Below are positions 28,112-42,770 of a DNA stretch of 64,000 nt, in pieces. The position numbers and the translations under genes are program-made. How positions within the stretch are numbered: position 1 is the first letter of the stretch; the number at the start of each line of letters is the position of its first letter. The notes beneath the pieces were generated by a model. The model was not told the origin of the DNA. It did not search any database and was given only the letters and a program-made list of their open reading frames with translations. The stretch comes from an uncultured Candidatus Saccharibacteria bacterium. Lineage in GTDB: Bacteria; Patescibacteriota; Minisyncoccia; Phycocordibacterales; UBA918. Location: the NCBI GenBank assembly GCA_964493145.1, contig CAZBMV010000002.1, positions 14,157 through 78,156 on the forward strand, read 5' to 3'.

Positions 28112-28831
28112 ATGCTGATCAAACCGATCAAAACATCACTTTTCAATATCAATGATGATCTATTTTTATTCATCACAAAATATATTAAAAAATTTAACGA
28201 GTATGACATACTCGTTATAACATCAAAAATTGTTGCCCTCTCTCAGGGGTGCGTGATTCCACACGATTCGTATACCAAGTATATGAATACCGTCTCAGCC
28301 CATTCAGTGAAGACGCCATGGGCGATACTCACGCTCACGAGTGAAGGGTGGTGTATTAATGCAGGTGTCGATGAATCTAACGTACGGAATGGCTACGTTA
28401 CACTGCCTGAAAACCCTTTTGAATATGCTCACATCCTGAGGAAGCGACTTAGGAAAAAATACGGTCTTAAAAATCTCGGTGTCATTATCACCGACACTCG
28501 AAGTGTCCCGCTTCGAGCCGGAACCGTTGGTCGCGCTATCGGCTGTGCCGGTTTTCATCCCCTCAAAAGCTACATTGGTAAAAAAGATTTGTTTGGGCGA
28601 AAGAGCAGAGTGACGGTGAGCAATAATGCCGACGCACTCGCGACCGGTGCGGTCTTCGTCATGGGCGAGGGAAGTGAGCAAACACCACTTGCGGTCATAC
28701 AAAATGCCCCGGTGAGATTCACTCAAAAAAAATTACCGAAAAAGGAAACACGCCTCTTTCTTCTCCCACGCGAAGATATTTTCACGTACCTATACAGAGC
28801 GCCTCGGAAATACCTCAAAGACACTCCATGA
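28112..28831 (+). CDS. CofE-like gamma-glutamyl ligase family protein (F420-0:gamma-glutamyl ligase fold)
   Basis: ILVITSKIVA…NAGVDESN…GVIITDT pattern and a length consistent with the F420_ligase family. Assigned by motif recall only. Confidence 0.5.
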   Translation: MLIKPIKTSLFNINDDLFLFITKYIKKFNEYDILVITSKIVALSQGCVIPHDSYTKYMNTVSAHSVKTPWAILTLTSEGWCINAGVDESNVRNGYVTLPENPFEYAHILRKRLRKKYGLKNLGVIITDTRSVPLRAGTVGRAIGCAGFHPLKSYIGKKDLFGRKSRVTVSNNADALATGAVFVMGEGSEQTPLAVIQNAPVRFTQKKLPKKETRLFLLPREDIFTYLYRAPRKYLKDTP

Positions 28832-29245
28832 GGAAATGTTGGTGTCGTACACTATCGTATAATCAACCGGCTCGTCCCACGATTGCCGTGTGAGAGTCTC
28901 TTTATCCTTAAACGATTCGGACGTTGCAACCCCGATGCGCACCCACTCCTTTGGAATAAGGGAAAGGAATCTGTCATACCACCCACCGCCACGTCCGTGG
29001 CGGGTGCCGTAAATATCAAAAGCCGTACCTGGTAGGAAGACACACACATTTTTCTTGTGTCCGAGTATTGCAGTGCACGTCTTCACCCACGTAACAACAT
29101 CCGCCTTCGCATCACATGGGATGACCAGCGTATCTTCTATATGTGTTATCGGAGTGTACTGGAGCGGATCAATCTCATCAAAATGTGGTGTGTACAAAAT
29201 TACACCCGTACACAATGCGAGTTCAGGAATATCAGCGCGAAGCAT
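28790..29245 (-). CDS. 5-formyltetrahydrofolate cyclo-ligase family protein
   Basis: LPGTAFDIYGTRHGRGGGWYDRFL matches the conserved 5-FCL motif. Confidence 0.65.
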   Translation of the reverse strand: MLRADIPELALCTGVILYTPHFDEIDPLQYTPITHIEDTLVIPCDAKADVVTWVKTCTAILGHKKNVCVFLPGTAFDIYGTRHGRGGGWYDRFLSLIPKEWVRIGVATSESFKDKETLTRQSWDEPVDYTIVYDTNISSWSVFEVFPRRSV

Positions 29246-29302
29246 GAGGATACTATACAAAAAAATGCCATGGGTGGGAACCCACGGCATTCACCGGTAC
29301 AC

Positions 29303-30313
29303 CTAGGAATCAAGGCTTTTGAGTATCTTGGTGTACAACGCTTCAACAATCGCTTGTTGCTCCTTGCCACTACGCGCGTAATGATCGAGGCCGGGTGCCG
29401 CGTTAATTTCGAGGACCCAGTACTTCTTTGGCTCCATGGAAATATCACCATGGATCATGAGGTCGACCCCGCAAAGCCGAAGCCCCATGTCACGCGTAAG
29501 CGATATGGCAATATCACGAAACGCGCGATGTACCACACTCGTCACATCGACTGATTCGCCACCGGAGGAAAGGTTCGCATTATCGAGAAGAAACACTTGC
29601 TCTCCTTTCAAAATGACACTCTCGGGAGAGTAGCCACTTCGCGCGAGCTTTTCTTTGATGCGCGAATCATCAAACGCAATCTGTGTATCGCGCTTTGCCC
29701 GAGCGAACTCTTGTTGCTTCTTGAGGAGAAGCTCGCGTACCGTCATCTTTCCGTCACCCGTGACAGAGAGCGGGATACGCTCGTACGCAGAAATAATTTT
29801 TCCATCGAGAACCACAATGCGATAATCCTTCCCGGATACCGGCTTTTGCACGAGCACAATACGATCATCCTTGAATGCCGCTCTCATCGCTTTATAGAAT
29901 CCTTGCTTCGTGTGGACAAGTACCACACCTTTTCCCTGGCTCCCGCTGTTGGGTTTCACGATGACCGGAAAGCCGAGTTGTTGCGCATGCCTGTACGCAG
30001 CATCAATTCCTCGATTGGTAACACCGATAACCTTTCCCCAATCATCTCGGAAAAACGTTTTGCTTCCGGGAACAACAGGGTACCCCATGCGTGCCATAAA
30101 GAAATTCGCGTAATCCTTATCCTTCGCGATATCAGCGGCACCAACAGGATTGAGGTCAAGTGAATTGTACCTAAAGTACGACCGTTTGCCGCTCTTGAAG
30201 GTGATTTGCCCGGCAATGCGCCACACAGGCTCAAGGAGAACCCTTGCACCAATCTGCAGTGCCACCTTTTGAAGTACCTTTCCAAGTACAAGTGATTCGT
30301 GTTTCTTTTTCAT
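29303..30313 (-). CDS. RimK-family ATP-grasp alpha-L-glutamate ligase-like protein
   Basis: PVIVKPNSGSQGKGV and …CGVDLMIHGD…WVLEINAAPGL are ATP-grasp RimK/CofF/MptN-type motifs. Confidence 0.7.
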   Translation of the reverse strand: MKKKHESLVLGKVLQKVALQIGARVLLEPVWRIAGQITFKSGKRSYFRYNSLDLNPVGAADIAKDKDYANFFMARMGYPVVPGSKTFFRDDWGKVIGVTNRGIDAAYRHAQQLGFPVIVKPNSGSQGKGVVLVHTKQGFYKAMRAAFKDDRIVLVQKPVSGKDYRIVVLDGKIISAYERIPLSVTGDGKMTVRELLLKKQQEFARAKRDTQIAFDDSRIKEKLARSGYSPESVILKGEQVFLLDNANLSSGGESVDVTSVVHRAFRDIAISLTRDMGLRLCGVDLMIHGDISMEPKKYWVLEINAAPGLDHYARSGKEQQAIVEALYTKILKSLDS

Positions 30314-30493: not shown

Positions 30494-31096
30494 ATGTGCA
30501 GCCAAAAAGGTGTGGCTGCCACGTTTGCAGCCTTCGCAGTACGTGTCACCCGCGTCTGGAATGCCTTCTTCGGTATCCAGTCGCACGACAGTAACACGAA
30601 AGCCGGCTACAAAGTCGGCAAGATAATAGCCCAGCGCGTCATCTACACAATGGCGGACTACTGGCTCATGGCTTTGTCTGCGGCATTTATCATTGTCGTG
30701 GACAAAGCACTCGGCTACGAGTGGTTCGGCCTATTCATGGCGATGTGGGGATTTGACATCGTCGTTGCGTGCGCCTTTGTTGCAATCTGGACACGCACGG
30801 GAGAGGACGTCACGCTCGGCGAGAGTTATCGCCGAGCGGCAGATGCCATTCATGCAGAGTCCCGCATTGCGGGATACCTTGCAATGGCAGGTGTCTGCAT
30901 CAAAGCGTCGTTCTGGGATGGTCCGGAGCATATTGTCATCTTCTTTCACAAGGAGATTGGCAATGAGGGACGAATGCTTGCTGTTCTCCTCGCGCTCACG
31001 GCAATTCAGGCGGCAATCTGGACTCCTGTCTACGTACTGGGGTTTGATACCGCCTCAGAACTCTTCACGCACATTATGAACACGTACGTGAGGTGA
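30494..31096 (+). CDS. Integral membrane protein (about 5 TM)
   Basis: Strong RBS (AGGAGGTG) 6 nt upstream, a TATAAT-like -10, and a 10-bp hairpin in the leader. Confidence 0.45.
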   Translation: MCSQKGVAATFAAFAVRVTRVWNAFFGIQSHDSNTKAGYKVGKIIAQRVIYTMADYWLMALSAAFIIVVDKALGYEWFGLFMAMWGFDIVVACAFVAIWTRTGEDVTLGESYRRAADAIHAESRIAGYLAMAGVCIKASFWDGPEHIVIFFHKEIGNEGRMLAVLLALTAIQAAIWTPVYVLGFDTASELFTHIMNTYVR

Positions 31097-31126
31097 CGGC
31101 CGACGCAGAGTTACATACTCGCCGAC

Positions 31127-31156
31127 CCACGGTCGGCGAGTTTTTTATTCCCACGC
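31127..31156 (+). terminator. Rho-independent terminator
   Basis: CTCGCCGACC-CACG-GTCGGCGAG hairpin followed by TTTTTTATT. Confidence 0.6.
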
Positions 31157-32054: not shown

Positions 32055-32594
32055 ATGGTAGATGGGAAGTCAAAGATGCTTTTTTGGGTGATGGCGATGC
32101 TCATCGTACTTTCGGTGTCGGCATCGTACTACCGTTTTATGGTGCTCCATGATTACGTCGTGGAGGCGCAAATTGACTGCGACCCGACATTTGAAAGCTG
32201 TTTCGTCTGGGAATGTGACCCGAGCATAGAAGGCGAGTGTACCGGAAATGAAGAAGAAGATACATGGTATTACAAGATTGCACATCGTAACGCGAAGAAC
32301 ATTACCGGTTGCGAAGATGGTGACACGACCTGTCAATTCACCTGTCCGAGTGATGGGGAAGAAGAGTGTGATGAGATACTTTGTTCTGATGAAGCACTTG
32401 CAACATACGACGTTTTGAATACGTGTACAAATCCTGATGATTTTCAGGATGAGACTCTTGAGGAAACAGAAGATGAGGAAGTGGTAAATGAGGAGGAATT
32501 AGTAGATGACACAGAATCATCTGATGAACAGATTGCAGACGATACAATCTCCACAACAGGCGACACCGTTGAAGCAGACAAGGAAATAGAATAA
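32055..32594 (+). CDS. Membrane-anchored cysteine-rich protein with an acidic C-terminal tail
   Basis: N-terminal TM helix, then 12 Cys in about 90 aa (CDP…C…C…CEDGDTTCQFTCPSDGEEECDEILC), then a D/E-rich tail. Confidence 0.45.
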   Translation: MVDGKSKMLFWVMAMLIVLSVSASYYRFMVLHDYVVEAQIDCDPTFESCFVWECDPSIEGECTGNEEEDTWYYKIAHRNAKNITGCEDGDTTCQFTCPSDGEEECDEILCSDEALATYDVLNTCTNPDDFQDETLEETEDEEVVNEEELVDDTESSDEQIADDTISTTGDTVEADKEIE

Positions 32595-32780: not shown

Positions 32781-33305
32781 CTACTTAACAATACTGAAAT
32801 GGTGGACATTGATTCTCTTTCCGTTTTTTACACGCGCTGACACAAAAAGCCCGTCTTGTGTAAAACCAACTTTCTCCAAAGCTTTCATCATGGGAATATT
32901 TCCTTCTTCAACCTCTGCACCAATACTGAAAATACCCAGATGTTCAAATGCGTAATGCGCTACAGCATTTATTACTTCTGTCGCAACACCTTTACCCCAA
33001 TAATTTTTGTCGCCAACAACAATGCCTAAATTTGCCACTCCGTGATACTCATTAAATTCGGTGAGAGCGACTGTTCCTATTGTTATCCCGTCAATTGTTT
33101 CAATTGACCAGTAGAAACCCTCTTCATCATTCTCACATTCATTGATGTACTCATATTGTGTCGTGATGTCCTGGGTTACACTTCGTGGTTCTGGCATAAA
33201 CGCTTGTACTTCTGGATCGGTGTCCCATTTCTGCCACAGCTCAACATCGCCCATTTTGAACGGACGGATATTATAATGTTCAGATGTGATTTTCGGTGAT
33301 TTCAT
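32781..33305 (-). CDS. GNAT-family N-acetyltransferase (RimJ/RimL-like)
   Basis: GNAT fold motifs (…IGTVAL…HGVANLGIVVGDKNYWGKGVATE…). Confidence 0.8.
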   Translation of the reverse strand: MKSPKITSEHYNIRPFKMGDVELWQKWDTDPEVQAFMPEPRSVTQDITTQYEYINECENDEEGFYWSIETIDGITIGTVALTEFNEYHGVANLGIVVGDKNYWGKGVATEVINAVAHYAFEHLGIFSIGAEVEEGNIPMMKALEKVGFTQDGLFVSARVKNGKRINVHHFSIVK

Positions 33306-33529: not shown

Positions 33530-34465
33530 TCACGGTCGTACATCTGTCCGGTCCAAGATTTTGAACCCTTCTATAACCGCTTCACAAAGAAAGTCCTCAA
33601 GCTGACTCTGGTCCCCTTTTGTCTGTGCCTTATACAGATACGTATAATACAGTTGTTTTTGTTCCTGACGGATAATAGCCGGAGCAATATTTGCGTTAAG
33701 CAGCATAGCGTTCATGAGTAATCGACCAACTCGACCATTACCATCTCCGAATGGATGAATTTGTTCGAACCTACTATGAACATCAGCAGATACGCCAATG
33801 ATGTCCGCAGTCTTTTCATGTATTCTGGTTATTACTTCCGTGATTAATTTAGTGATACTCATATAATTCGCAGTTGCTAAATGAACACCGGTTATTCTGA
33901 CCCCGTGATTTCTATATACACCCGCGTCCGAACGGACACCATTCATGAGAATGCTGTGAAGTTTAAGAACGAGAGCTTCATCGATTATTTTCTTTTGAGC
34001 GATATAATCAAATAAATAATTTAGAGCCGTCTGATGATTTTTTGCCTCCAATTGTTCAGAAAGGCTCTTACTCGGTAACGCAACATTATCAAAAAGGATA
34101 GCCGCTGTATCTCCCTCGGTAAGAGTACTGCCCTCGATACTGTTACTGTGGTATGTGAGCTTCAAAATGAATTGGTCACGAACATCGGGATTATCTAAAA
34201 TCTCATCTATCACACTTGAATATTCATTTGACTTTTTCTGAATAGCTTGTTTTTTTGCCACCAGAAAGTCGGCTGAGATTACCTTCTGTCCGGTAACTTC
34301 TAAAAAAAGTTCGTCTATCAATGCTCGCATTTTTGCTCGCGGGTGAGATTTCTCTGTCCACCAGCTATTAAACGTGACGAAAGACACACCAAACCTTTCT
34401 GCTAATTTGGTTTGGGTTAACCCCAACATTTTTTTAATTATCTCTAGTTTTTGGCGTGTATTCAT
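33530..34465 (-). CDS. Fic-family protein with an N-terminal HTH
   Basis: HPFGDGNGRVGRLL is the canonical Fic motif. The N-terminus has an XRE-like HTH (LTQTKLAERFGVSFVTF). Confidence 0.85.
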   Translation of the reverse strand: MNTRQKLEIIKKMLGLTQTKLAERFGVSFVTFNSWWTEKSHPRAKMRALIDELFLEVTGQKVISADFLVAKKQAIQKKSNEYSSVIDEILDNPDVRDQFILKLTYHSNSIEGSTLTEGDTAAILFDNVALPSKSLSEQLEAKNHQTALNYLFDYIAQKKIIDEALVLKLHSILMNGVRSDAGVYRNHGVRITGVHLATANYMSITKLITEVITRIHEKTADIIGVSADVHSRFEQIHPFGDGNGRVGRLLMNAMLLNANIAPAIIRQEQKQLYYTYLYKAQTKGDQSQLEDFLCEAVIEGFKILDRTDVRP

Positions 34466-34551: not shown

Positions 34552-34610
34552 ACAATAACGCTGATGGTGAAGAAATATTGTCCTGTTTATTCTATAATCT
34601 ATATACAATT

Positions 34611-35363
34611 ATGTACCCACAACATCTTCCCACATATATTCATACTTTTCTTGACTATCCCGACTGGAGAGCCGTCGAATCTGCACACTATATATTTAAC
34701 TACACAAATGGGAGTGAAGCAGAAAGGGAAATCCAACATATCATTCACACACAAGAGGAAGGCTTCACAAGAATACTTAATGTTCTTAAAATTGTACCTC
34801 CCACAAAGAAGATTACATACTACTTTTATCCCAATGAACAGCTCAAAATGCAGCTTATGGGTGATGATTGGTATGCCCAGTCTATTTATAATGAATTCTG
34901 TGTTCATGTGCTATATACATCTGAACACAAACCAATAGGACCACATGAAGATACGCATCTTCTGAGTCTACCGTGGGGTCTTTCGTGGTGCTTCCTCCAG
35001 GAAGGACTTGCGGAACATATAGTTGGACACTCGTGGGACAAATGCTCTCATATTGAGAAGATGAAGGAGGGTATTGCAAAAGGAATCAACCTTTATCCTT
35101 CAACCCAACTTTCAGACGAGGATTGGCTGAATACATCGGACGATGGTGCGATATATTACTATGCACTCGCTGGTTCATGGGCAACGTTTTTGATTGAGCA
35201 GTATGGGCTTGAATGTTTTAAGAATCTGTATACCAACACTCACAATACAATGTCGCGAAGTATGATTGAATCAGCATATATGAAATATTATGGTGTGTCA
35301 CTTGAGAATCTTGAAAGACAGTATTTCCAGAAAATTTTGGGTTCGAGAAGAACTTCTGAATAA
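34611..35363 (+). CDS. HExxH-motif protein, putative zincin-like metallopeptidase
   Basis: GPHEDTHLL plus a downstream Glu (…QEGLAEH…). The start is uncertain: TTG at 34578 or ATG at 34611. Confidence 0.4.
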   Translation: MYPQHLPTYIHTFLDYPDWRAVESAHYIFNYTNGSEAEREIQHIIHTQEEGFTRILNVLKIVPPTKKITYYFYPNEQLKMQLMGDDWYAQSIYNEFCVHVLYTSEHKPIGPHEDTHLLSLPWGLSWCFLQEGLAEHIVGHSWDKCSHIEKMKEGIAKGINLYPSTQLSDEDWLNTSDDGAIYYYALAGSWATFLIEQYGLECFKNLYTNTHNTMSRSMIESAYMKYYGVSLENLERQYFQKILGSRRTSE

Positions 35364-35612: not shown

Positions 35613-36404
35613 ATGAGTACGTGTATGGAAAATATCTATTTGTCGCTGGATGAAGCTCGTGAAAAATTGAGAGAGCGGTGGAATGATGTTGAACTCAAAA
35701 GCAAAATTGAAAATGAATTAGGGGATAAATTTATCCAGCAATACTCAAGTGGTCCCCTTGGTATCACCACGCGACAAATAATATCCGCCGACAACGGTTG
35801 TTCTTTTTTAGACTACGCCGCTCATTACATTGGTGCTAAACCATGTGCACAAGAATTTTATGGTGATAAATTCGTTCATTTTAACGAAGAAAAGAAGGGT
35901 CTTGGCAGACTCAGAATCACGCTTAATACTGGAGAGTATGCAACGATTGATTGTATGGATTTCCACGCTTGTGAAAAAAAGAAGTTGATTGACTGTCAAC
36001 TTAAATCAGGCGAATCTCTTGTTGAGTTTCATCATGAACTTCTTGCAATAGACAATATAGGCATTGAGTATTTTGATAATACAAATTGGTACCATTCAAT
36101 CGGTCATGCGACAGATTATTATTATTACATGCTACTACATTTTGTCGCGCACGGTGTTCTCTTTGAGACATTTTATGACGAAGGAGGAACGACAGAGGAT
36201 GAGTTTACACACAATGTGGTATACCCAACGATTAACAGAATCCACGAAAAATTTGGTTTGATGCCAATGCTTATCAGAGCATACCCTGAGCACCAAAGTG
36301 ACGAAGAGGATTTTTACTGGTGGAATCACAGTAATAATGTCAACAAATGCATTATTGAATATGCATTAAAAAATAATCTTGAAATCAAAAAAGTATATGT
36401 ATGA
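35613..36404 (+). CDS. Unknown-function protein, paralog B of the three-member family
   Basis: AT-rich (~38% GC). It aligns with paralogs A and C. Conserved blocks include KKGLGRLRI and the His-rich segments FHHEL and HFVAHG. Confidence 0.5.
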   Translation: MSTCMENIYLSLDEAREKLRERWNDVELKSKIENELGDKFIQQYSSGPLGITTRQIISADNGCSFLDYAAHYIGAKPCAQEFYGDKFVHFNEEKKGLGRLRITLNTGEYATIDCMDFHACEKKKLIDCQLKSGESLVEFHHELLAIDNIGIEYFDNTNWYHSIGHATDYYYYMLLHFVAHGVLFETFYDEGGTTEDEFTHNVVYPTINRIHEKFGLMPMLIRAYPEHQSDEEDFYWWNHSNNVNKCIIEYALKNNLEIKKVYV

Positions 36405-37155
36405 AATATCTAACATTCATCTATCCCTTGATGATGTGCGGACCCAATTAAATCACAGGTGGAATAACGTTGATTTGAGAAAACAAATTGAAGACGAGCT
36501 CGGCGAGTATTTTATGCCGCAGTTTAAAAGTGTACCTCGTACAGTTTCTTTTAGACAAATATGTACTCCAGATCATGGGTTTTTCTTTTTTAATTATGCC
36601 TCCAAATATGTGGGGGCACAGCCACTCGTTCTTGAATACCATGATGATTTATTTGTATCACTAAATGAGGAGAAGAAGGGACTTGGTCGGCTTCGTATCG
36701 TAAATGAGAATGGTGCATGCACAACACTTGATATATTGGACTTTCATGAAAATGAAAGGAAAAAACTTTCAGAGTGCAAAACAAAGCAGGGTGTTAATCT
36801 TGTAGATTTTCATCATGAGCTTTTTAAGGTTTCAAATACTGAGATTGAACTTTTAGATAACTCAAAATGGTTTAAGGCGCAGGGTTCTGCATCTGACTAT
36901 TACTACAATTTGTACCTACACTACGTCGCTCATGGTGTTGCGTTTGAAAATTTATTTGATGAGACGGAAAGTGGAATAAATTTTCTTAATAATATTGTTG
37001 AACCAGCCATTGAACGAATTTATTCTAAATACAATCTCAAACCTCTCATTGCTAGACAGTACCCAACTAATCAAAACGATGCCGAAGATTTCTACTGGTG
37101 GTCCTATCCATCACGTATAAATGATTATATAATTAAAATGAGTCCAGCAAATTAA
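36397..37155 (+). CDS. Unknown-function protein, paralog C of the three-member family
   Basis: Its ATG overlaps the stop of paralog B by 8 nt. It ends 1 nt before the histidine kinase start. Confidence 0.5.
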   Translation: MYEISNIHLSLDDVRTQLNHRWNNVDLRKQIEDELGEYFMPQFKSVPRTVSFRQICTPDHGFFFFNYASKYVGAQPLVLEYHDDLFVSLNEEKKGLGRLRIVNENGACTTLDILDFHENERKKLSECKTKQGVNLVDFHHELFKVSNTEIELLDNSKWFKAQGSASDYYYNLYLHYVAHGVAFENLFDETESGINFLNNIVEPAIERIYSKYNLKPLIARQYPTNQNDAEDFYWWSYPSRINDYIIKMSPAN

Positions 37156-37156
37156 A

Positions 37157-38839
37157 ATGATATGCACTGATATACCACCTCCTGAATATTTAATTTTTTC
37201 GGACACTGTTCCGCAATTGCTTTATTATTCACATATACCTACCGCAATAATAACCTTATTCATTGGGCTTTTTGTTTTTTTGAAAAGTAAAAATTTATTA
37301 AGTGCATTACTTCTTTTAATCTCGTCTACCTTTACAATATGGCTCTTTATTAACCTTCTCAGTTGGACTAGCGTAAACGGTGACTTGATAATGTTCAACT
37401 CTTCACTCTTTGGTATCTTAAACATTGTTCTATTTTTTTCATTTTTATATTTTTATATATTTTATATTAGGAGGTGTGACGTTCACTATTTTTATAAAAT
37501 ATTATTATCACTTTTGCTTTTACCAGTTATTTTATTTAGTCAATATAATTTTTCTGTTTTTAACCTTACTTACTGTGAAGTATTTGATACTGTCGGTGTC
37601 TATTCGGACTATATTTACATACTTGAACTACTTGTATTTATTACCATATTACTATTTGGAGGATATAGTTATATACGTTCCAAGGAGGAGTTGAGAGAAC
37701 AAATTTTACTTATTACTTTTGGTGTAGGATCATTTTTATTTTTGTTTTTTACAACTGGATACTTTGCGAGCTACTTAAATGAAATGGGGTTCAATAACGC
37801 ATTTGAGATTGAGCAGTACGGTCTTTTTGGTATGACATTTTTTATCGGTGTGCTCTCATACCTCATCGTGAAGTTCCACGCCTTTAATATCAAACTTGCG
37901 GCGGCACAGGCGCTCGTCGTTGCGCTTATCTTTATTACCGGATCCGAACTCTTCTTCGTTGAGTCACTCACCAACTACATCCTCGTCAGTATTACGCTCA
38001 TCTTCTCCATCATTGGTGGATACTTCCTCGTGCGAAGTGTAAAGAGAGAAATAGCCCAGCGTGAAGAAATTGCACAACTCGCGGATACACTGGCGAAGGC
38101 GAATGAGCGATTGAAGATTTTGGACAAAATGAAGTCGGAGTTTGTCTCCATTGCATCGCACCAGCTCCGAAGCCCGCTCACCTCTATTCGCGGCTACGCG
38201 TCTATGCTTGCAGAAGGATCGTATGGGAAACTACCTGAGAAAGCGCAGGAAGTTGCAAGCAGTATTGCCGAGTCAAGCAAATTTATGGCAATGTCTATTG
38301 AGGACTACCTCAATGTCTCGCGCATTGAAGCGGGGAACATGAAGTACGAGATGAGCGACTTTAGCTTAAAAGATGTTGCCGGAAAGGTTGTGGACGAATT
38401 GCGACCAACCGCCATGAAGAAGGGTCTTGTCATGGTCTTCCGTTCTGATTGCACCACGCAGGGTACCATTCACGCCGACATAGGAAAGACGCGCCAGATC
38501 ATCATGAACCTCGTGGACAACTCCATGAAGTACACGCCAAAGGGTACCGTGACGGTCATCGCGCACGACGACGTGAAAAAGAAGAAGATGTACGTCACGA
38601 TTCAAGACACCGGCATTGGCATGAGCAAGGAAACGCTAGAAGAGGTCTTTGATAAGTTCGTGAGGGCAAAGAACGCCAACAGCGTAAACGTCACCGGCAC
38701 CGGTCTCGGCCTTTTTGTCGCAAAGAAAATGGTTACCGAAATGAAAGGTAAGGTCTGGGCCGAGTCTGAAGGAGAAGGCAAGGGCTCACGGTTCATTGTG
38801 GAGTTTCCACTGATTTCTGGGGATGCGAGTGGGAAGTAA
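37157..38839 (+). CDS. Sensor histidine kinase with a multi-TM N-terminal domain; no response regulator nearby
   Basis: HisKA H-box (SIASHQLRSPLTSIRGY) and HATPase_c N/G boxes (NLVDNSMKYT, GTGLGLFVAKKMV). The N-terminus has about 7-8 hydrophobic helices, partly encoded by a very AT-rich low-complexity stretch. Confidence 0.8.
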   Translation: MICTDIPPPEYLIFSDTVPQLLYYSHIPTAIITLFIGLFVFLKSKNLLSALLLLISSTFTIWLFINLLSWTSVNGDLIMFNSSLFGILNIVLFFSFLYFYIFYIRRCDVHYFYKILLSLLLLPVILFSQYNFSVFNLTYCEVFDTVGVYSDYIYILELLVFITILLFGGYSYIRSKEELREQILLITFGVGSFLFLFFTTGYFASYLNEMGFNNAFEIEQYGLFGMTFFIGVLSYLIVKFHAFNIKLAAAQALVVALIFITGSELFFVESLTNYILVSITLIFSIIGGYFLVRSVKREIAQREEIAQLADTLAKANERLKILDKMKSEFVSIASHQLRSPLTSIRGYASMLAEGSYGKLPEKAQEVASSIAESSKFMAMSIEDYLNVSRIEAGNMKYEMSDFSLKDVAGKVVDELRPTAMKKGLVMVFRSDCTTQGTIHADIGKTRQIIMNLVDNSMKYTPKGTVTVIAHDDVKKKKMYVTIQDTGIGMSKETLEEVFDKFVRAKNANSVNVTGTGLGLFVAKKMVTEMKGKVWAESEGEGKGSRFIVEFPLISGDASGK

Positions 38840-38851
38840 TTTTTTATGTAA

Positions 38852-39244
38852 GAAAAACAGTTTGACGAATGGAATAATGTTAAGAAGAAAATTGATTCTC
38901 ACATTCACAAGCCACCGCTATTTAAAGAACGTGAAATTTGGTGGTGCTCATTTGGTGTAAATGTTGGGTCAGAAGTGTGTGGCAAAAATGTATTTTTTCG
39001 TAGACCAGTTTTGGTTCTCAAAAAACTTTCTCAAACTTCGTTTATAGGAGTACCCCTATCAACAAAGAAGACTGAGGGTACGTGGTATATCGAAATTACT
39101 CACAGTGACGGTATGAAAAATACCGTAAACGTTGCACAGGTACGTTACGTTGATTACAGAAGACTTGATAAGAAGATTGGAACGCTTGATTCAATTGATT
39201 TTGAAAAGGTCAAAAACCAATTGAAAATAGTACTGGGTATATAA
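38852..39244 (+). CDS. MazF/PemK-family endoribonuclease toxin homolog with no canonical start (possible pseudogene)
   Basis: The in-frame region encodes …EREIWWCSFG…RRPVLVL…VPLST…LDSIDFEKVKNQLKIVLGI, which matches PemK/MazF. An ATG at 38846 is followed at once by TAA. The first in-frame canonical start is GTG 38975, which would delete beta-strand 1. Confidence 0.5.
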   Translation, partial: EKQFDEWNNVKKKIDSHIHKPPLFKEREIWWCSFGVNVGSEVCGKNVFFRRPVLVLKKLSQTSFIGVPLSTKKTEGTWYIEITHSDGMKNTVNVAQVRYVDYRRLDKKIGTLDSIDFEKVKNQLKIVLGI

Positions 39245-39437
39245 CATAAATCCCCACCCTTTCGGGCGGGGGACGTGGCTAATGCCAAATGTACGTATAT
39301 TGTATACAGGTAAAGTTGTGTTGTCAATCGAAACTGAGTAACTAATTGCAGAATGAGTATTCCATGGTATTATGTTGATGTGCTTGTGGGGCGTCAGCCC
39401 TATTCGGCTAATACATAAGCTGAAGGCAAGCATATTA

Positions 39438-39468
39438 AAAAATACCACCCTCGGGTGGTATTTTTTAA
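39438..39468. terminator. Bidirectional terminator hairpin
   Basis: ATACCACC-CTCG-GGTGGTAT perfect stem flanked by A-run and T-run, between convergent genes. Confidence 0.6.
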
Positions 39469-39944
39469 TCCTCATCCGGATTACCTTTCATAGTGGATAC
39501 AAATTTGATATCTCTATATTTATTTGTTGTCCATGCAGGCACAACGCTCCAAAAATGTAGCAGTCCATTATCCCCAATTTTTCTCAAGATTACTTTTATT
39601 TTTCTATTACCCATAATCGCAATGATTCCCCAGTACTGTATACGTTTTGCTTTCACAACCTTTGATTTCCTTTCTTTCACTACAAATTCTTTCAACATCT
39701 CTTCATACTCTTGGTGTGTAGTTGAGAGCGCAACGAGTTCAATCACTCGTGGCAAAAGTTTAAAGCGCATTACTTGCGAAGCACGATCACGTTCGTGTCT
39801 CGAATTCTTAAATATAATATGATTGAAACCTTCAGCATTGAAATATACAAGCTCATTCATAACAGGTGAAAACACCGGCTTTTGCAAAACATAAAAGGTG
39901 TGTGAATCCGCTTTTAATTTTTCATAATTTAAAAGATCATCCAT
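39465..39944 (-). CDS. Hypothetical protein (159 aa)
   Basis: ORF with a hairpin terminator downstream. No motif recognised. Confidence 0.4.
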   Translation of the reverse strand: MDDLLNYEKLKADSHTFYVLQKPVFSPVMNELVYFNAEGFNHIIFKNSRHERDRASQVMRFKLLPRVIELVALSTTHQEYEEMLKEFVVKERKSKVVKAKRIQYWGIIAIMGNRKIKVILRKIGDNGLLHFWSVVPAWTTNKYRDIKFVSTMKGNPDED

Positions 39945-42042: not shown

Positions 42043-42147
42043 ATTTAAAAATGATACAGTATTTGCTTTAAAAAATACAAAAATGGTCACTGAAATAAAG
42101 AACTGAATGTAAGGGGTACATTTCAGAACCTTGAGCAGTTTCAGTGA

Positions 42148-42216
42148 GCGGAGAGTGAAGGCGAAGGGAAGGGCTCACGGTTCATTGTGGAGTTTCCACT
42201 CGTGGTGGGGAAATAG
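42148..42216 (+). pseudogene. 3' remnant of a second sensor histidine kinase gene
   Basis: It encodes AESEGEGKGSRFIVEFPL…*, identical in amino acids to the C-terminus of the kinase at 38770-38811, with 32 nt identical and synonymous differences around it. A stop codon lies immediately upstream. Confidence 0.6.
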
Positions 42217-42277
42217 GACACATATTTATTCAGTAATTCAGTATTGCAGAATTACTGAATTTTGCTATACTGGTTTC

Positions 42278-42535
42278 ATGAATACAATCAAACTCAATCA
42301 ACGTGGTGTGCTCACACTCCCAAAAAATATTCGTGATACATTTGGTCTCAAGGCGGGTGAGATTCTCGTTGTTTCAAAAGAAGACAATAAAATTGTGCTT
42401 GAACGCCAGCAATCTGACAAGGAACTTCTCCGTAGTATTCAGCACTCGCTTAACGATATTAAGCACGGAAGGTTTATTGAATTCGGCTCAATTAGCGAGT
42501 TTAAGAAAAAACTAAAAGCATATGATGCGAATTAG
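42278..42535 (+). CDS. AbrB/MazE/SpoVT-type antitoxin
   Basis: MNTIKLNQRGVLTLPKNIRDTFGLKAGEILVV is a SpoVT_AbrB swapped-hairpin domain. It overlaps the downstream toxin by 14 nt. Confidence 0.65.
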   Translation: MNTIKLNQRGVLTLPKNIRDTFGLKAGEILVVSKEDNKIVLERQQSDKELLRSIQHSLNDIKHGRFIEFGSISEFKKKLKAYDAN

Positions 42536-42770
42536 AATTTCTGAAACCGCACTCAAGCAGTACAACAAACTTCCCACAGCACTCAAGCAAAAGGCAAACA
42601 AACAGTTTGAATATCTCCTCTCAGACGTTCGTCACCCTTCTCTACACGCAAAAAAGTACAAGGAGTCCGACGATCTTTGGCAGGCAAGCATTGATAAGAA
42701 TTGGCGTTTTTATTTTTTCATTGTGTCACCAGAGTACATTATCGTTTCAGTCATTAGGCATCCGAAGTAG
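42522..42770 (+). CDS. Type II toxin, RelE/ParE family
   Basis: 82 aa with …DLWQASIDKNWRFYFFIVSPEYIIVSVIRHPK, a typical RelE/ParE C-terminus. Confidence 0.7.
   Translation: MMRIRISETALKQYNKLPTALKQKANKQFEYLLSDVRHPSLHAKKYKESDDLWQASIDKNWRFYFFIVSPEYIIVSVIRHPK

Follow-up and report, generated by a model that had tools for sequence, protein, structure and literature searches.

A putative exchangeable sensor cassette formed by an uncharacterised Patescibacteria protein family and the membrane domain of an orphan histidine kinase

The locus considered here occupies positions 35613 to 39244 of a 64,000-nucleotide stretch of DNA (the window) from an uncultured Candidatus Saccharibacteria bacterium (assembly GCA_964493145.1, contig CAZBMV010000002.1, positions 14,157 to 78,156 of the forward strand). 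It contains two paralogous genes, B and C, a histidine kinase gene and a MazF-like reading frame, which a preliminary description made from the sequence had read as one candidate operon. B and C, together with a third paralog (A) elsewhere in the window, belong to an uncharacterised protein family, labelled FAM here. The principal features, numbered from the first nucleotide of the window, are the following.

35613-36404, + strand: FAM paralog B, 263 amino acids (aa) as listed, with a probable start at 35625; predicted to be cytoplasmic, with a Rossmann-like, HUP-like fold
36397-37155, + strand: FAM paralog C, starting at ATG 36397; the kinase-proximal paralog
37157-38839, + strand: histidine kinase, with HisKA (PF00512, E 7e-16, aa 325-393) and HATPase_c (PF02518, E 1e-25, aa 444-552)
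37157-37840, + strand: 5' part of the kinase gene, foreign and low in G+C content (GC), encoding transmembrane (TM) helices 1-6 and half of helix 7 of a HisKA_7TM-like sensor domain
37841-38839, + strand: 3' part of the kinase gene, resident and vertically inherited, encoding TM7b-TM9, a coiled coil, HisKA and HATPase_c
38846-39244, + strand: MazF/PemK-like solitary toxin gene, probably a pseudogene, beginning ATG TAA
31217-31990, + strand: FAM paralog A, of a divergent subfamily (25% identity to B, E 3e-20; 212 bits to the family hidden Markov model)

The co-orientation and close packing of B, C and the kinase on the + strand, as first described, were confirmed. The ATG of paralog C lies inside the last codons of paralog B (ATGTATGA), whose TGA stop occupies 36402-36404, giving an overlap of 8 nucleotides (nt), and a gap of 1 nt separates the paralog C stop from the kinase ATG at 37157. 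The database copy of paralog B (P0001) begins at Met5, which corresponds to 35625. B, C and the kinase form a tight, translationally coupled unit.

Paralogs B and C share 47% identity (E 1e-90), and their earlier recognition as a pair of paralogs holds, with the divergent paralog A to be added as a third. Paralog C is 59-60% identical to its kinase-proximal counterparts elsewhere, above its 47% identity to B, and paralog B is nearest to the first gene of tandem arrays elsewhere (54% identity). As each matches the genes in the same position elsewhere better than it matches the other, the duplication that gave rise to B and C is old, with the gene order kept. Residues R22, R54, D85, N91, K94, H140, W159, H180, G181 and E185 were (near-)invariant in an alignment of 47 sequences and are kept in A, B and C; the divergent paralog A retains R22, R54, D85, N91, K94, H140, H180 and E185, and paralog C retains the family-conserved residues bar Asn61, which is replaced by His. 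The invariant Lys94 lies within a conserved NEEKKGLGRL motif. The conserved polar set resembles an active-site pattern, suggesting that FAM proteins are enzyme-like, and hydropathy analysis detected no hydrophobic segments in them; they are therefore probably cytoplasmic.

FAM had no match in Pfam, NCBIfam, PADLOC or PHROGs, nor in the PDB by sequence or by profile, which bears out the earlier statement that the paralogs belong to an unknown family. A word-indexed search returned 215 homologs, mostly from Parcubacteria and Moranbacteria metagenome-assembled genomes (MAGs), and all those named in their source were "hypothetical". A profile search of 1.84 billion representatives gave 839 matches at E <= 1e-3, 332 of them below 1e-30, and the family thus numbers no fewer than 839 representative clusters at 50% identity. 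A search of viral contigs (IMG/VR) gave no FAM homolog. FAM is a new, uncharacterised, Patescibacteria-wide family. Fusions of GNAT to FAM (three clusters) and of FAM to SET (two clusters) link FAM functionally to both domains. One further protein, P0123 (433 aa), joins FAM to a domain resembling the S4-like C-terminal domain of tyrosyl-tRNA synthetase (TyrRS; 27 bits, at the Pfam cutoff); it was set aside as evidence, being a single case involving a frequent neighbour of FAM, and it may be the result of a deletion or an assembly chimera.

The fold of FAM was examined in an AlphaFold2 (AF2) model of high predicted confidence (pLDDT 95.3). In it, a helical hairpin at the N-terminus is joined to an alpha/beta core of five parallel strands, with an insertion following strand 2; this is consistent with a Rossmann-like (HUP-like) fold. 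Foldseek searches against the PDB and BFVD returned nothing at E <= 0.001 (best 0.04), and the best fold match, class I lysyl-tRNA synthetase (LysRS), had low structural scores. The HUP class comprises the class I aminoacyl-tRNA synthetases, BshC, ATP sulfurylase and the NMN and pantetheine-phosphate adenylyltransferases. In place of the HIGH (HxGH) motif of this class, FAM has S-A-D-N-G in the loop after strand 1 (aa 49-54), with the family consensus CSPDNGF; similarly, no KMSKS or ISxxxR-type motif is present after strand 5, where the loop sequence is YPEHQSDEEDFYWW and the consensus YPxxQxxEEDFYWW (both consensus stretches were read from the alignment against the secondary structure of the model). 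When the FAM profile was compared by hhalign with the TyrRS/TrpRS encoded in the window itself, the probability was 0.3%. The possibility that FAM is a cyclodipeptide synthase (class Ic synthetase-like, about 240 aa) was considered and dropped, as neither sequence nor structure showed similarity to these enzymes.

The histidine kinase carries its H-box (SIASHQLRSP) inside the HisKA domain. Its sensor domain was predicted to contain nine helices (AF2 model with pLDDT 88; hydropathy). Eleven of 33 homologs of the membrane domain match HisKA_7TM (PF16927; best E 1.3e-6), and the window copy is unmatched at E 0.1 and at E 0.01. The initial designation as a 7TM kinase is to be corrected in the number of helices, nine by the model against seven by the name. 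These matches suggest that the membrane domain is distantly related to HisKA_7TM, a described sensor domain whose ligand is not known (PMC5847659). Stand-alone membrane domains of about 280 aa, with no kinase part, were observed directly upstream of FAM-kinase in two loci (L008, 71-910; L019, 9101-9943). No receiver domain was found by jackhmmer from CheY and PhoB among the window ORFs (open reading frames) of at least 50 aa across 64 kb, and a response regulator is adjacent in just two of the 33 loci with a full-length kinase. The kinase is an orphan at its locus, as had been stated.

The conservation of this neighbourhood was investigated in 106 loci gathered by exact protein look-up, from GTDB genomes and from metagenomes, which reduced to 75 distinct FAM loci. 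ORF calling was mechanical and the labels came from jackhmmer runs with the window proteins, so that the counts are approximate. The 56 loci with a full B-type FAM gene were taken as informative, and a kinase was counted if it lay downstream on the same strand and had a homologous membrane domain.

Homologous kinase directly adjacent (+1): 29 of 56 loci
Homologous kinase one gene off, beyond a SET-domain gene (+2): 6 of 56 loci
Homologous kinase one gene off, beyond a small membrane-anchored Cys-rich protein gene (+2): 6 of 56 loci
Homologous kinase two genes off (+3): 1 of 56 loci
Homologous kinase absent: 14 of 56 loci

The linkage of FAM to the kinase was therefore found in 42 of the 56 loci, or three quarters, and persists even where FAM identity has fallen to 36-39%, the MAGs concerned bearing the labels Parcubacteria, Moranbacteria, Paceibacteria, Saccharibacteria and Shapirobacteria; the preliminary description had proposed such a comparison, and the adjacency proved to be conserved. 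The flanking genes are unrelated and vary between loci, although several loci share a wider synteny, with ArgRS upstream and TyrRS/ProRS/LytB downstream. Loci that lack the kinase mostly carry SET or a 190-aa membrane protein (m190) instead, and the majority of those with an organism label (GTDB genomes) are, as binned, assigned to non-CPR phyla (CPR, Candidate Phyla Radiation, the Patescibacteria). Five genes recur near FAM among the 75 loci.

EamA/DMT transporter: 23 of 75 loci, directly upstream in 12
PurD-like ATP-grasp: 23 of 75 loci
SET: 18 of 75 loci
m190 membrane protein: 14 of 75 loci; weak VTT/DedA-like match (E 0.006)
o200 membrane protein: 9 of 75 loci

The composition of the kinase gene changes abruptly within its membrane domain. 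The GC of paralogs B and C is 0.369 and 0.356, that of kinase codons 1-300 is 0.334 and that of codons 301-560 is 0.504; at finer scale it is 0.20-0.32 up to 37849 and 0.46-0.54 across 37850-38749, placing the step at about 37850. Nucleotide homology to L045 and L046 begins at 37841 or 37994 and reaches the kinase stop at 75-78% identity, with none before 37841. The same division was seen in the identities of the kinase proteins to that of the window.

Near relatives (L045, L093): TM1-6, 34% and 35%; TM7-9, 56% and 57%; core, 86% and 74%
Distant FAM-linked loci (L001, L014, L018, L061): TM1-6, 40-44%; TM7-9, 58-64%; core, 39-48%

Kinase fragments in L046 are likewise 88-90% identical to the window kinase core at the protein level. 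The upstream partners of the kinase differ among these relatives: SET in L045, a Cys-rich protein in L046, and FAM with a Cys-rich protein in L093. The mosaic junction falls in helix 7, beside the most conserved stretch of the domain, in which G222, F224-M226, F229, K246 and Q251-V254 are nearly invariant, and it is a plausible site of homologous recombination. Across 23 loci, compared as locus pairs that are not independent of each other, FAM identity correlated with TM-domain identity at r 0.77 (partial 0.68) and with kinase-core identity at r 0.57 (partial 0.32). These observations show that B, C and kinase TM1-6 constitute one low-GC block that was recombined into a resident kinase gene, the core of which is 74-90% identical to that of relatives.

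The MazF-like frame and its surroundings were also examined, with the features listed here.

38837-39300, + strand: mobile MazF cassette, matched by blastn in L044 (77%), L045 and L046 (77%) and L042 (93%), ending just past the hairpin 39252-39271
39434-39469, no strand: bidirectional intrinsic-terminator hairpin, A/T-flanked (-21.6 kcal/mol, z -6.7), shared with the convergent 159-aa ORF
39465-39944, - strand: 159-aa ORF convergent with MazF, with no family match apart from a spurious one to CoV_NSP8

The frame 38852-39244 spans positions 2-109 of the 109 of the PemK/MazF domain (PF02452, E 3e-14) and matches phrog_9567, "MazF-like growth inhibitor" (E 2.6e-22, residues 2-125, 124 of 130 residues). 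The assignment as MazF-like is therefore sound as far as the domain is concerned, but the frame has no usable start: the region 38846-38854 reads ATG-TAA-GAA, with the stop (38849-38851) at codon 2. A protein of 132 aa that is 99% identical to the window MazF (P0337) begins MYEKQFDEW, with Tyr at codon 2, and L042 and L043, which share 93% DNA identity over window positions 38751-39334, read ATG TAC GAA. As all three carry Tyr, the window codon appears to be a single-base nonsense change from Tyr to ochre, unless it is an assembly error. The next canonical start (GTG, 38975) would cost the first 20 positions of the domain, and the N-terminal extension (MYEKQFDEWN...) is typical of the 132-aa subgroup. 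MazF/PemK type II modules pair with an antitoxin, whereas the window MazF has no adjacent one: no MazE/PemI-type partner was found beside it in the window, where the kinase lies upstream and the terminator downstream, nor in L042, L044, L045 or L046. The frame is in register with that of the kinase, with TAA codons at 38837-38839 and 38849-38851 between them; this is probably a coincidence.

The MazF gene and about 56 nt closing in the GC-rich hairpin 39252-39271 make up a cassette of ~460 nt, which was found in four different positions in relatives. In a Kaiserbacteria genome (CP064968.1, L044, 4992-5614) it lies downstream of dnaJ and a 159-aa gene; the 3'-terminal 107 nt of that gene are duplicated and flank the cassette, and FAM and kinase are both absent within the 10.4-kb locus fetched. 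In L045 (5016-5455) it lies upstream of SET-kinase, in L046 upstream of a Cys-rich gene and a broken kinase, and in L042 (2906-3489) and L043 an intact MazF is preceded by no more of the kinase than a remnant of its 3' end. The window is the single one of the 75 FAM loci to contain MazF. As it has a stop at codon 2, is found in a single FAM locus and sits elsewhere in relatives, MazF is not a plausible output of the kinase, and the four-gene operon of the preliminary description falls; MazF is a solitary toxin-like cassette, mobile in its own right, which came to lie at the kinase 3' end. No integrase or transposase was seen near it. Orphan fragments of the kinase 3' end (corresponding to window positions 38699-38784) were also noted directly upstream of a MazE-ParE pair in L045 (9652-9826) and L046 (5453-5626); in the window the kinase is separated from such a pair by MazF, the 159-aa ORF, a methyltransferase and an LD-carboxypeptidase, and the difference in position suggests repeated cassette insertion at the kinase 3' end.

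The bidirectional terminator reported at about 39440 was confirmed as the hairpin at 39434-39469. Of the promoter-like matches in the 14 kb scanned, the best lies at 39299-39327 on the minus strand (TTGACA-17-TACAAT, 11/12), antisense toward the MazF 3' end; as the terminator-like hairpin 39252-39271 follows directly on the same strand, this could represent a very short antisense transcript or chance. In L030 (10898-11443) a homolog of the 159-aa ORF comes immediately after the FAM-kinase pair.

The remaining features of the window that bear on the locus are listed below.

30494-31096, + strand: o200, a polytopic membrane protein with hydrophobic segments; recurrent partner of A-type FAM
32055-32594, + strand: o179, a membrane-anchored, Cys-rich, acidic ectoprotein with a shared CDP..E.CF motif
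32781-33305, - strand: GNAT (Pfam), present in 1 of 75 FAM loci
33530-34465, - strand: Fic (Pfam, 1e-18), present in 4 of 75 FAM loci
34578-35363, + strand: HEDTH zincin-like ORF, with weak zincin matches (E 1e-3 and 0.07); HExxH in 1 of 75 FAM loci
42131-42535: MazE/AbrB-type antitoxin, paired with a ParE-like toxin
42522-42770: ParE-like toxin, 82 aa, overlapping the antitoxin by 14 nt

In L017, L019 and L023-25 a homolog of o200 immediately precedes A-type FAM, and in L012, L021, L022 and L047 one is found near FAM; in the window o200 precedes paralog A in the same order. Although this gene pair recurs in other genomes, a strong terminator-like hairpin (31117-31141; 11-bp stem with 8 GC pairs, T run) separates the two genes in the window, and could be an attenuator or a true transcript end. 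Just upstream of o200 and paralog A, at 28112-30313, lie a homolog of the CofE-like F420-0:gamma-glutamyl ligase and a RimK-like ATP-grasp ligase; given the divergent PurD-like ATP-grasp genes beside FAM at 23 other loci, these amide-forming ligases may be part of the FAM pathway. The o179 family sits between FAM and the kinase in six loci. GNAT, Fic and HEDTH are context and not conserved partners; of the upstream Fic and zincin-like proteins pointed out earlier, Fic and the HEDTH motif are present as stated, while the zincin assignment is weak. The earlier statement that no MazE-like antitoxin is present holds beside MazF but not for the window, in which the MazE/AbrB-type protein and its ParE-like partner are 70% and 82% identical to the L045/L046 pair. 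The listed antitoxin ORF has an N-terminal extension of ~50 aa, and its true start is probably further downstream.

The window is chromosomal, from an organism of Parcubacteria-like character, with grpE-dnaK-dnaJ upstream and TyrRS/TrpRS, a class II aminoacyl-tRNA synthetase (Asp/Lys/Asn type), leucyl aminopeptidase and ScpAB downstream. Its DnaK shares 88% identity with the DnaK of Candidatus Kaiserbacteria CP064968.1. The stretch from ~32 to 43 kb has a GC of 0.34-0.44, compared with 0.48-0.53 in the flanks. Neither a tRNA nor an Rfam family at the gathering threshold was found in the 64 kb.

A possible explanation for these observations, held tentatively and at slightly less than an even chance, is that the functional unit is a three-gene exchangeable sensor cassette, comprised of B, C and the sensor half of the kinase, with FAM feeding into the kinase on its input side, and not a four-gene operon. 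Most likely, FAM would produce, alter or bind a ligand, either small or associated with the membrane, via nucleotide-dependent chemistry. In other genomes, SET and GNAT enzymes would tailor the ligand and EamA transporters would export it. The TM domain of the cognate kinase would detect the ligand, with phosphotransfer to a response regulator encoded elsewhere, and the cassette would set signal specificity in the manner of comQ-comX with the ComP N-terminus or agrB-agrD with the AgrC N-terminus. Confidence in the anatomy of the FAM-kinase cassette and its evolution is high, and confidence in the mechanism moderate to low. It is conceivable, though improbable on present evidence, that the arrangement belongs to a widespread, hypervariable producer/receptor system in Patescibacteria, in which a new class of signal made by FAM, tailored by SET/GNAT and exported by EamA would be read by the cognate HisKA_7TM kinase allele in strain-specific, pherotype-like communication between cells or between symbiont and host, which is not known to have been described for these organisms.

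Several observations weigh against a sensor cassette. The TM regions of relatives also lie below their kinase cores in GC, and part of the GC step in the window is therefore a matter of composition. FAM abuts the kinase 5' end, so recombination at the sensor end would carry it along regardless of any interaction, and the co-transfer could be positional; the non-independence of the locus pairs also bears on the correlation between FAM and TM-domain identity. FAM occurs without the kinase in the 14 loci noted above, and the kinase occurs without FAM in both of the distant homologs sampled (L040, L041) and in the close relative L045; because the L040 and L041 kinases lack FAM, the linkage does not hold in the reverse direction among distant homologs. 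SET, EamA and the PurD-like gene are all missing from the 64-kb window. Finally, no conserved small precursor ORF was found upstream of FAM, where matches occurred just between near-identical contigs.

The same linkage and co-inheritance could be produced if FAM were a non-catalytic or nucleotide-sensing cytoplasmic co-sensor or scaffold on the cytoplasmic face of the kinase membrane domain, with SET and GNAT modifying a conserved FAM lysine (for instance K94/K95) or the kinase as an adaptation layer, comparable to CheR/CheB on chemoreceptors. UspC, which acts on KdpD, provides a precedent. SET and GNAT are lysine-directed modifiers and both are fused to FAM, Lys94 is invariant within its motif, and the partners of FAM also include TM domains that stand alone, as well as other polytopic proteins. 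However, the invariant Arg, Asp, Asn, His and Glu set looks catalytic and not purely structural, and a quarter of the loci have FAM without a kinase; a co-sensor is considered unlikely, if not negligibly so. Somewhat improbable, too, is a purely positional linkage, in which FAM would be an enzyme of membrane or envelope metabolism acting with o200, m190 and EamA, for example in aminoacyl- or nucleotidyl-transfer as in lipid modification of the MprF/LysX type, and the kinase would be a frequent neighbour or pathway regulator. The pairing of FAM-A with o200, and of FAM with m190 where the kinase is absent, would be expected from such an enzyme, as would the recurrence of EamA and PurD-like ATP-grasp in 23 loci each, the LysRS-like best fold match, the GNAT fusions and the wider synteny with synthetase genes in several loci. 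It accounts poorly for a kinase adjacency that survives unrelated flanks at low FAM identity, for the translational coupling to the kinase, and for the transfer of FAM and TM1-6 as one block.

The preliminary description had proposed that membrane sensing is coupled to an RNase effector, or that the four genes form a defence module with the paralogs as its enzymatic or immunity parts. The position of MazF, 6 nt past the kinase stop, in frame and upstream of the shared terminator, its retention by the closest relatives in the variable region of the kinase, and the match of the upstream Fic to PADLOC candidate families (PDC-S04/SoFic) are compatible with this. The stop at codon 2 in the window and the intact L042/L043 copy beside a mere kinase remnant argue against MazF as an effector, as do its absence from the other 74 FAM loci and its differing position and order in relatives, including a genome with neither FAM nor kinase in the locus fetched. 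Nor does a defence module find support: PADLOC returned nothing for FAM-A, B, C or MazF and matched the kinase through its generic ATPase domain only, no FAM homolog turned up in viral contigs (IMG/VR), and Fic and HExxH are not conserved partners. The kinase-MazF effector model is largely refuted, and in either form the four-gene proposal is very improbable.

Patescibacteria are ultra-small, mostly episymbiotic and have very few signalling genes, and the means by which they recognise hosts or kin are, to our knowledge, essentially undescribed. A literature search found nothing relevant on Patescibacteria quorum sensing, nor on SET with a kinase in CPR. If FAM is a signal-making or signal-binding partner, it would open a way into CPR signalling, add a new family of enzymes and provide a ligand lead for the orphan HisKA_7TM domain. 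An odd gene cluster has in any case become a defined and testable object, consisting of a family, a dedicated kinase and their apparent joint exchange with the sensor helices, and a misleading lead has been removed, MazF being a hitch-hiking cassette whose second codon is a stop.

Among known systems, the arrangement can be compared with those in which a synthase gene accompanies a sensor kinase. In the Vibrio CqsA-CqsS and LuxM-LuxN systems, the gene for a cytoplasmic synthase lies beside that of a multi-pass kinase which senses the product in its TM domain, and the regulator is encoded elsewhere. The synthases of the CqsA/LuxM type are enzymes dependent on pyridoxal phosphate (PLP) or catalysing acyl transfer. 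The gene arrangement is alike, but FAM differs from these synthases in sequence and fold. The comQXPA (Bacillus) and agrBDCA (Staphylococcus) systems differ in more respects: FAM has no homology to ComQ or AgrB, the window locus has neither a conserved precursor-peptide gene nor an adjacent response regulator, and the kinase is of the HisKA class with a HisKA_7TM-like nine-helix domain. They likewise have a polytopic kinase with no large extracytoplasmic domain, and directly upstream in the operon lie the genes that determine the signal, a role that would fall to FAM in the window. ComP varies in its N-terminal membrane domain and is conserved in its cytoplasmic one (PMC4008528), and the agr hypervariable region covers agrB, agrD and agrC (PMC10482373). 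As in the window, the variable block takes in the upstream genes and the membrane-embedded N-terminal half of the kinase, and the cytoplasmic half is conserved. The FAM locus thus has the appearance of a sensor kinase whose specificity cassette can be exchanged, and the specificity-determining communication modules of the Firmicutes evolve in like manner, the sensor part being swapped while the core is inherited vertically.

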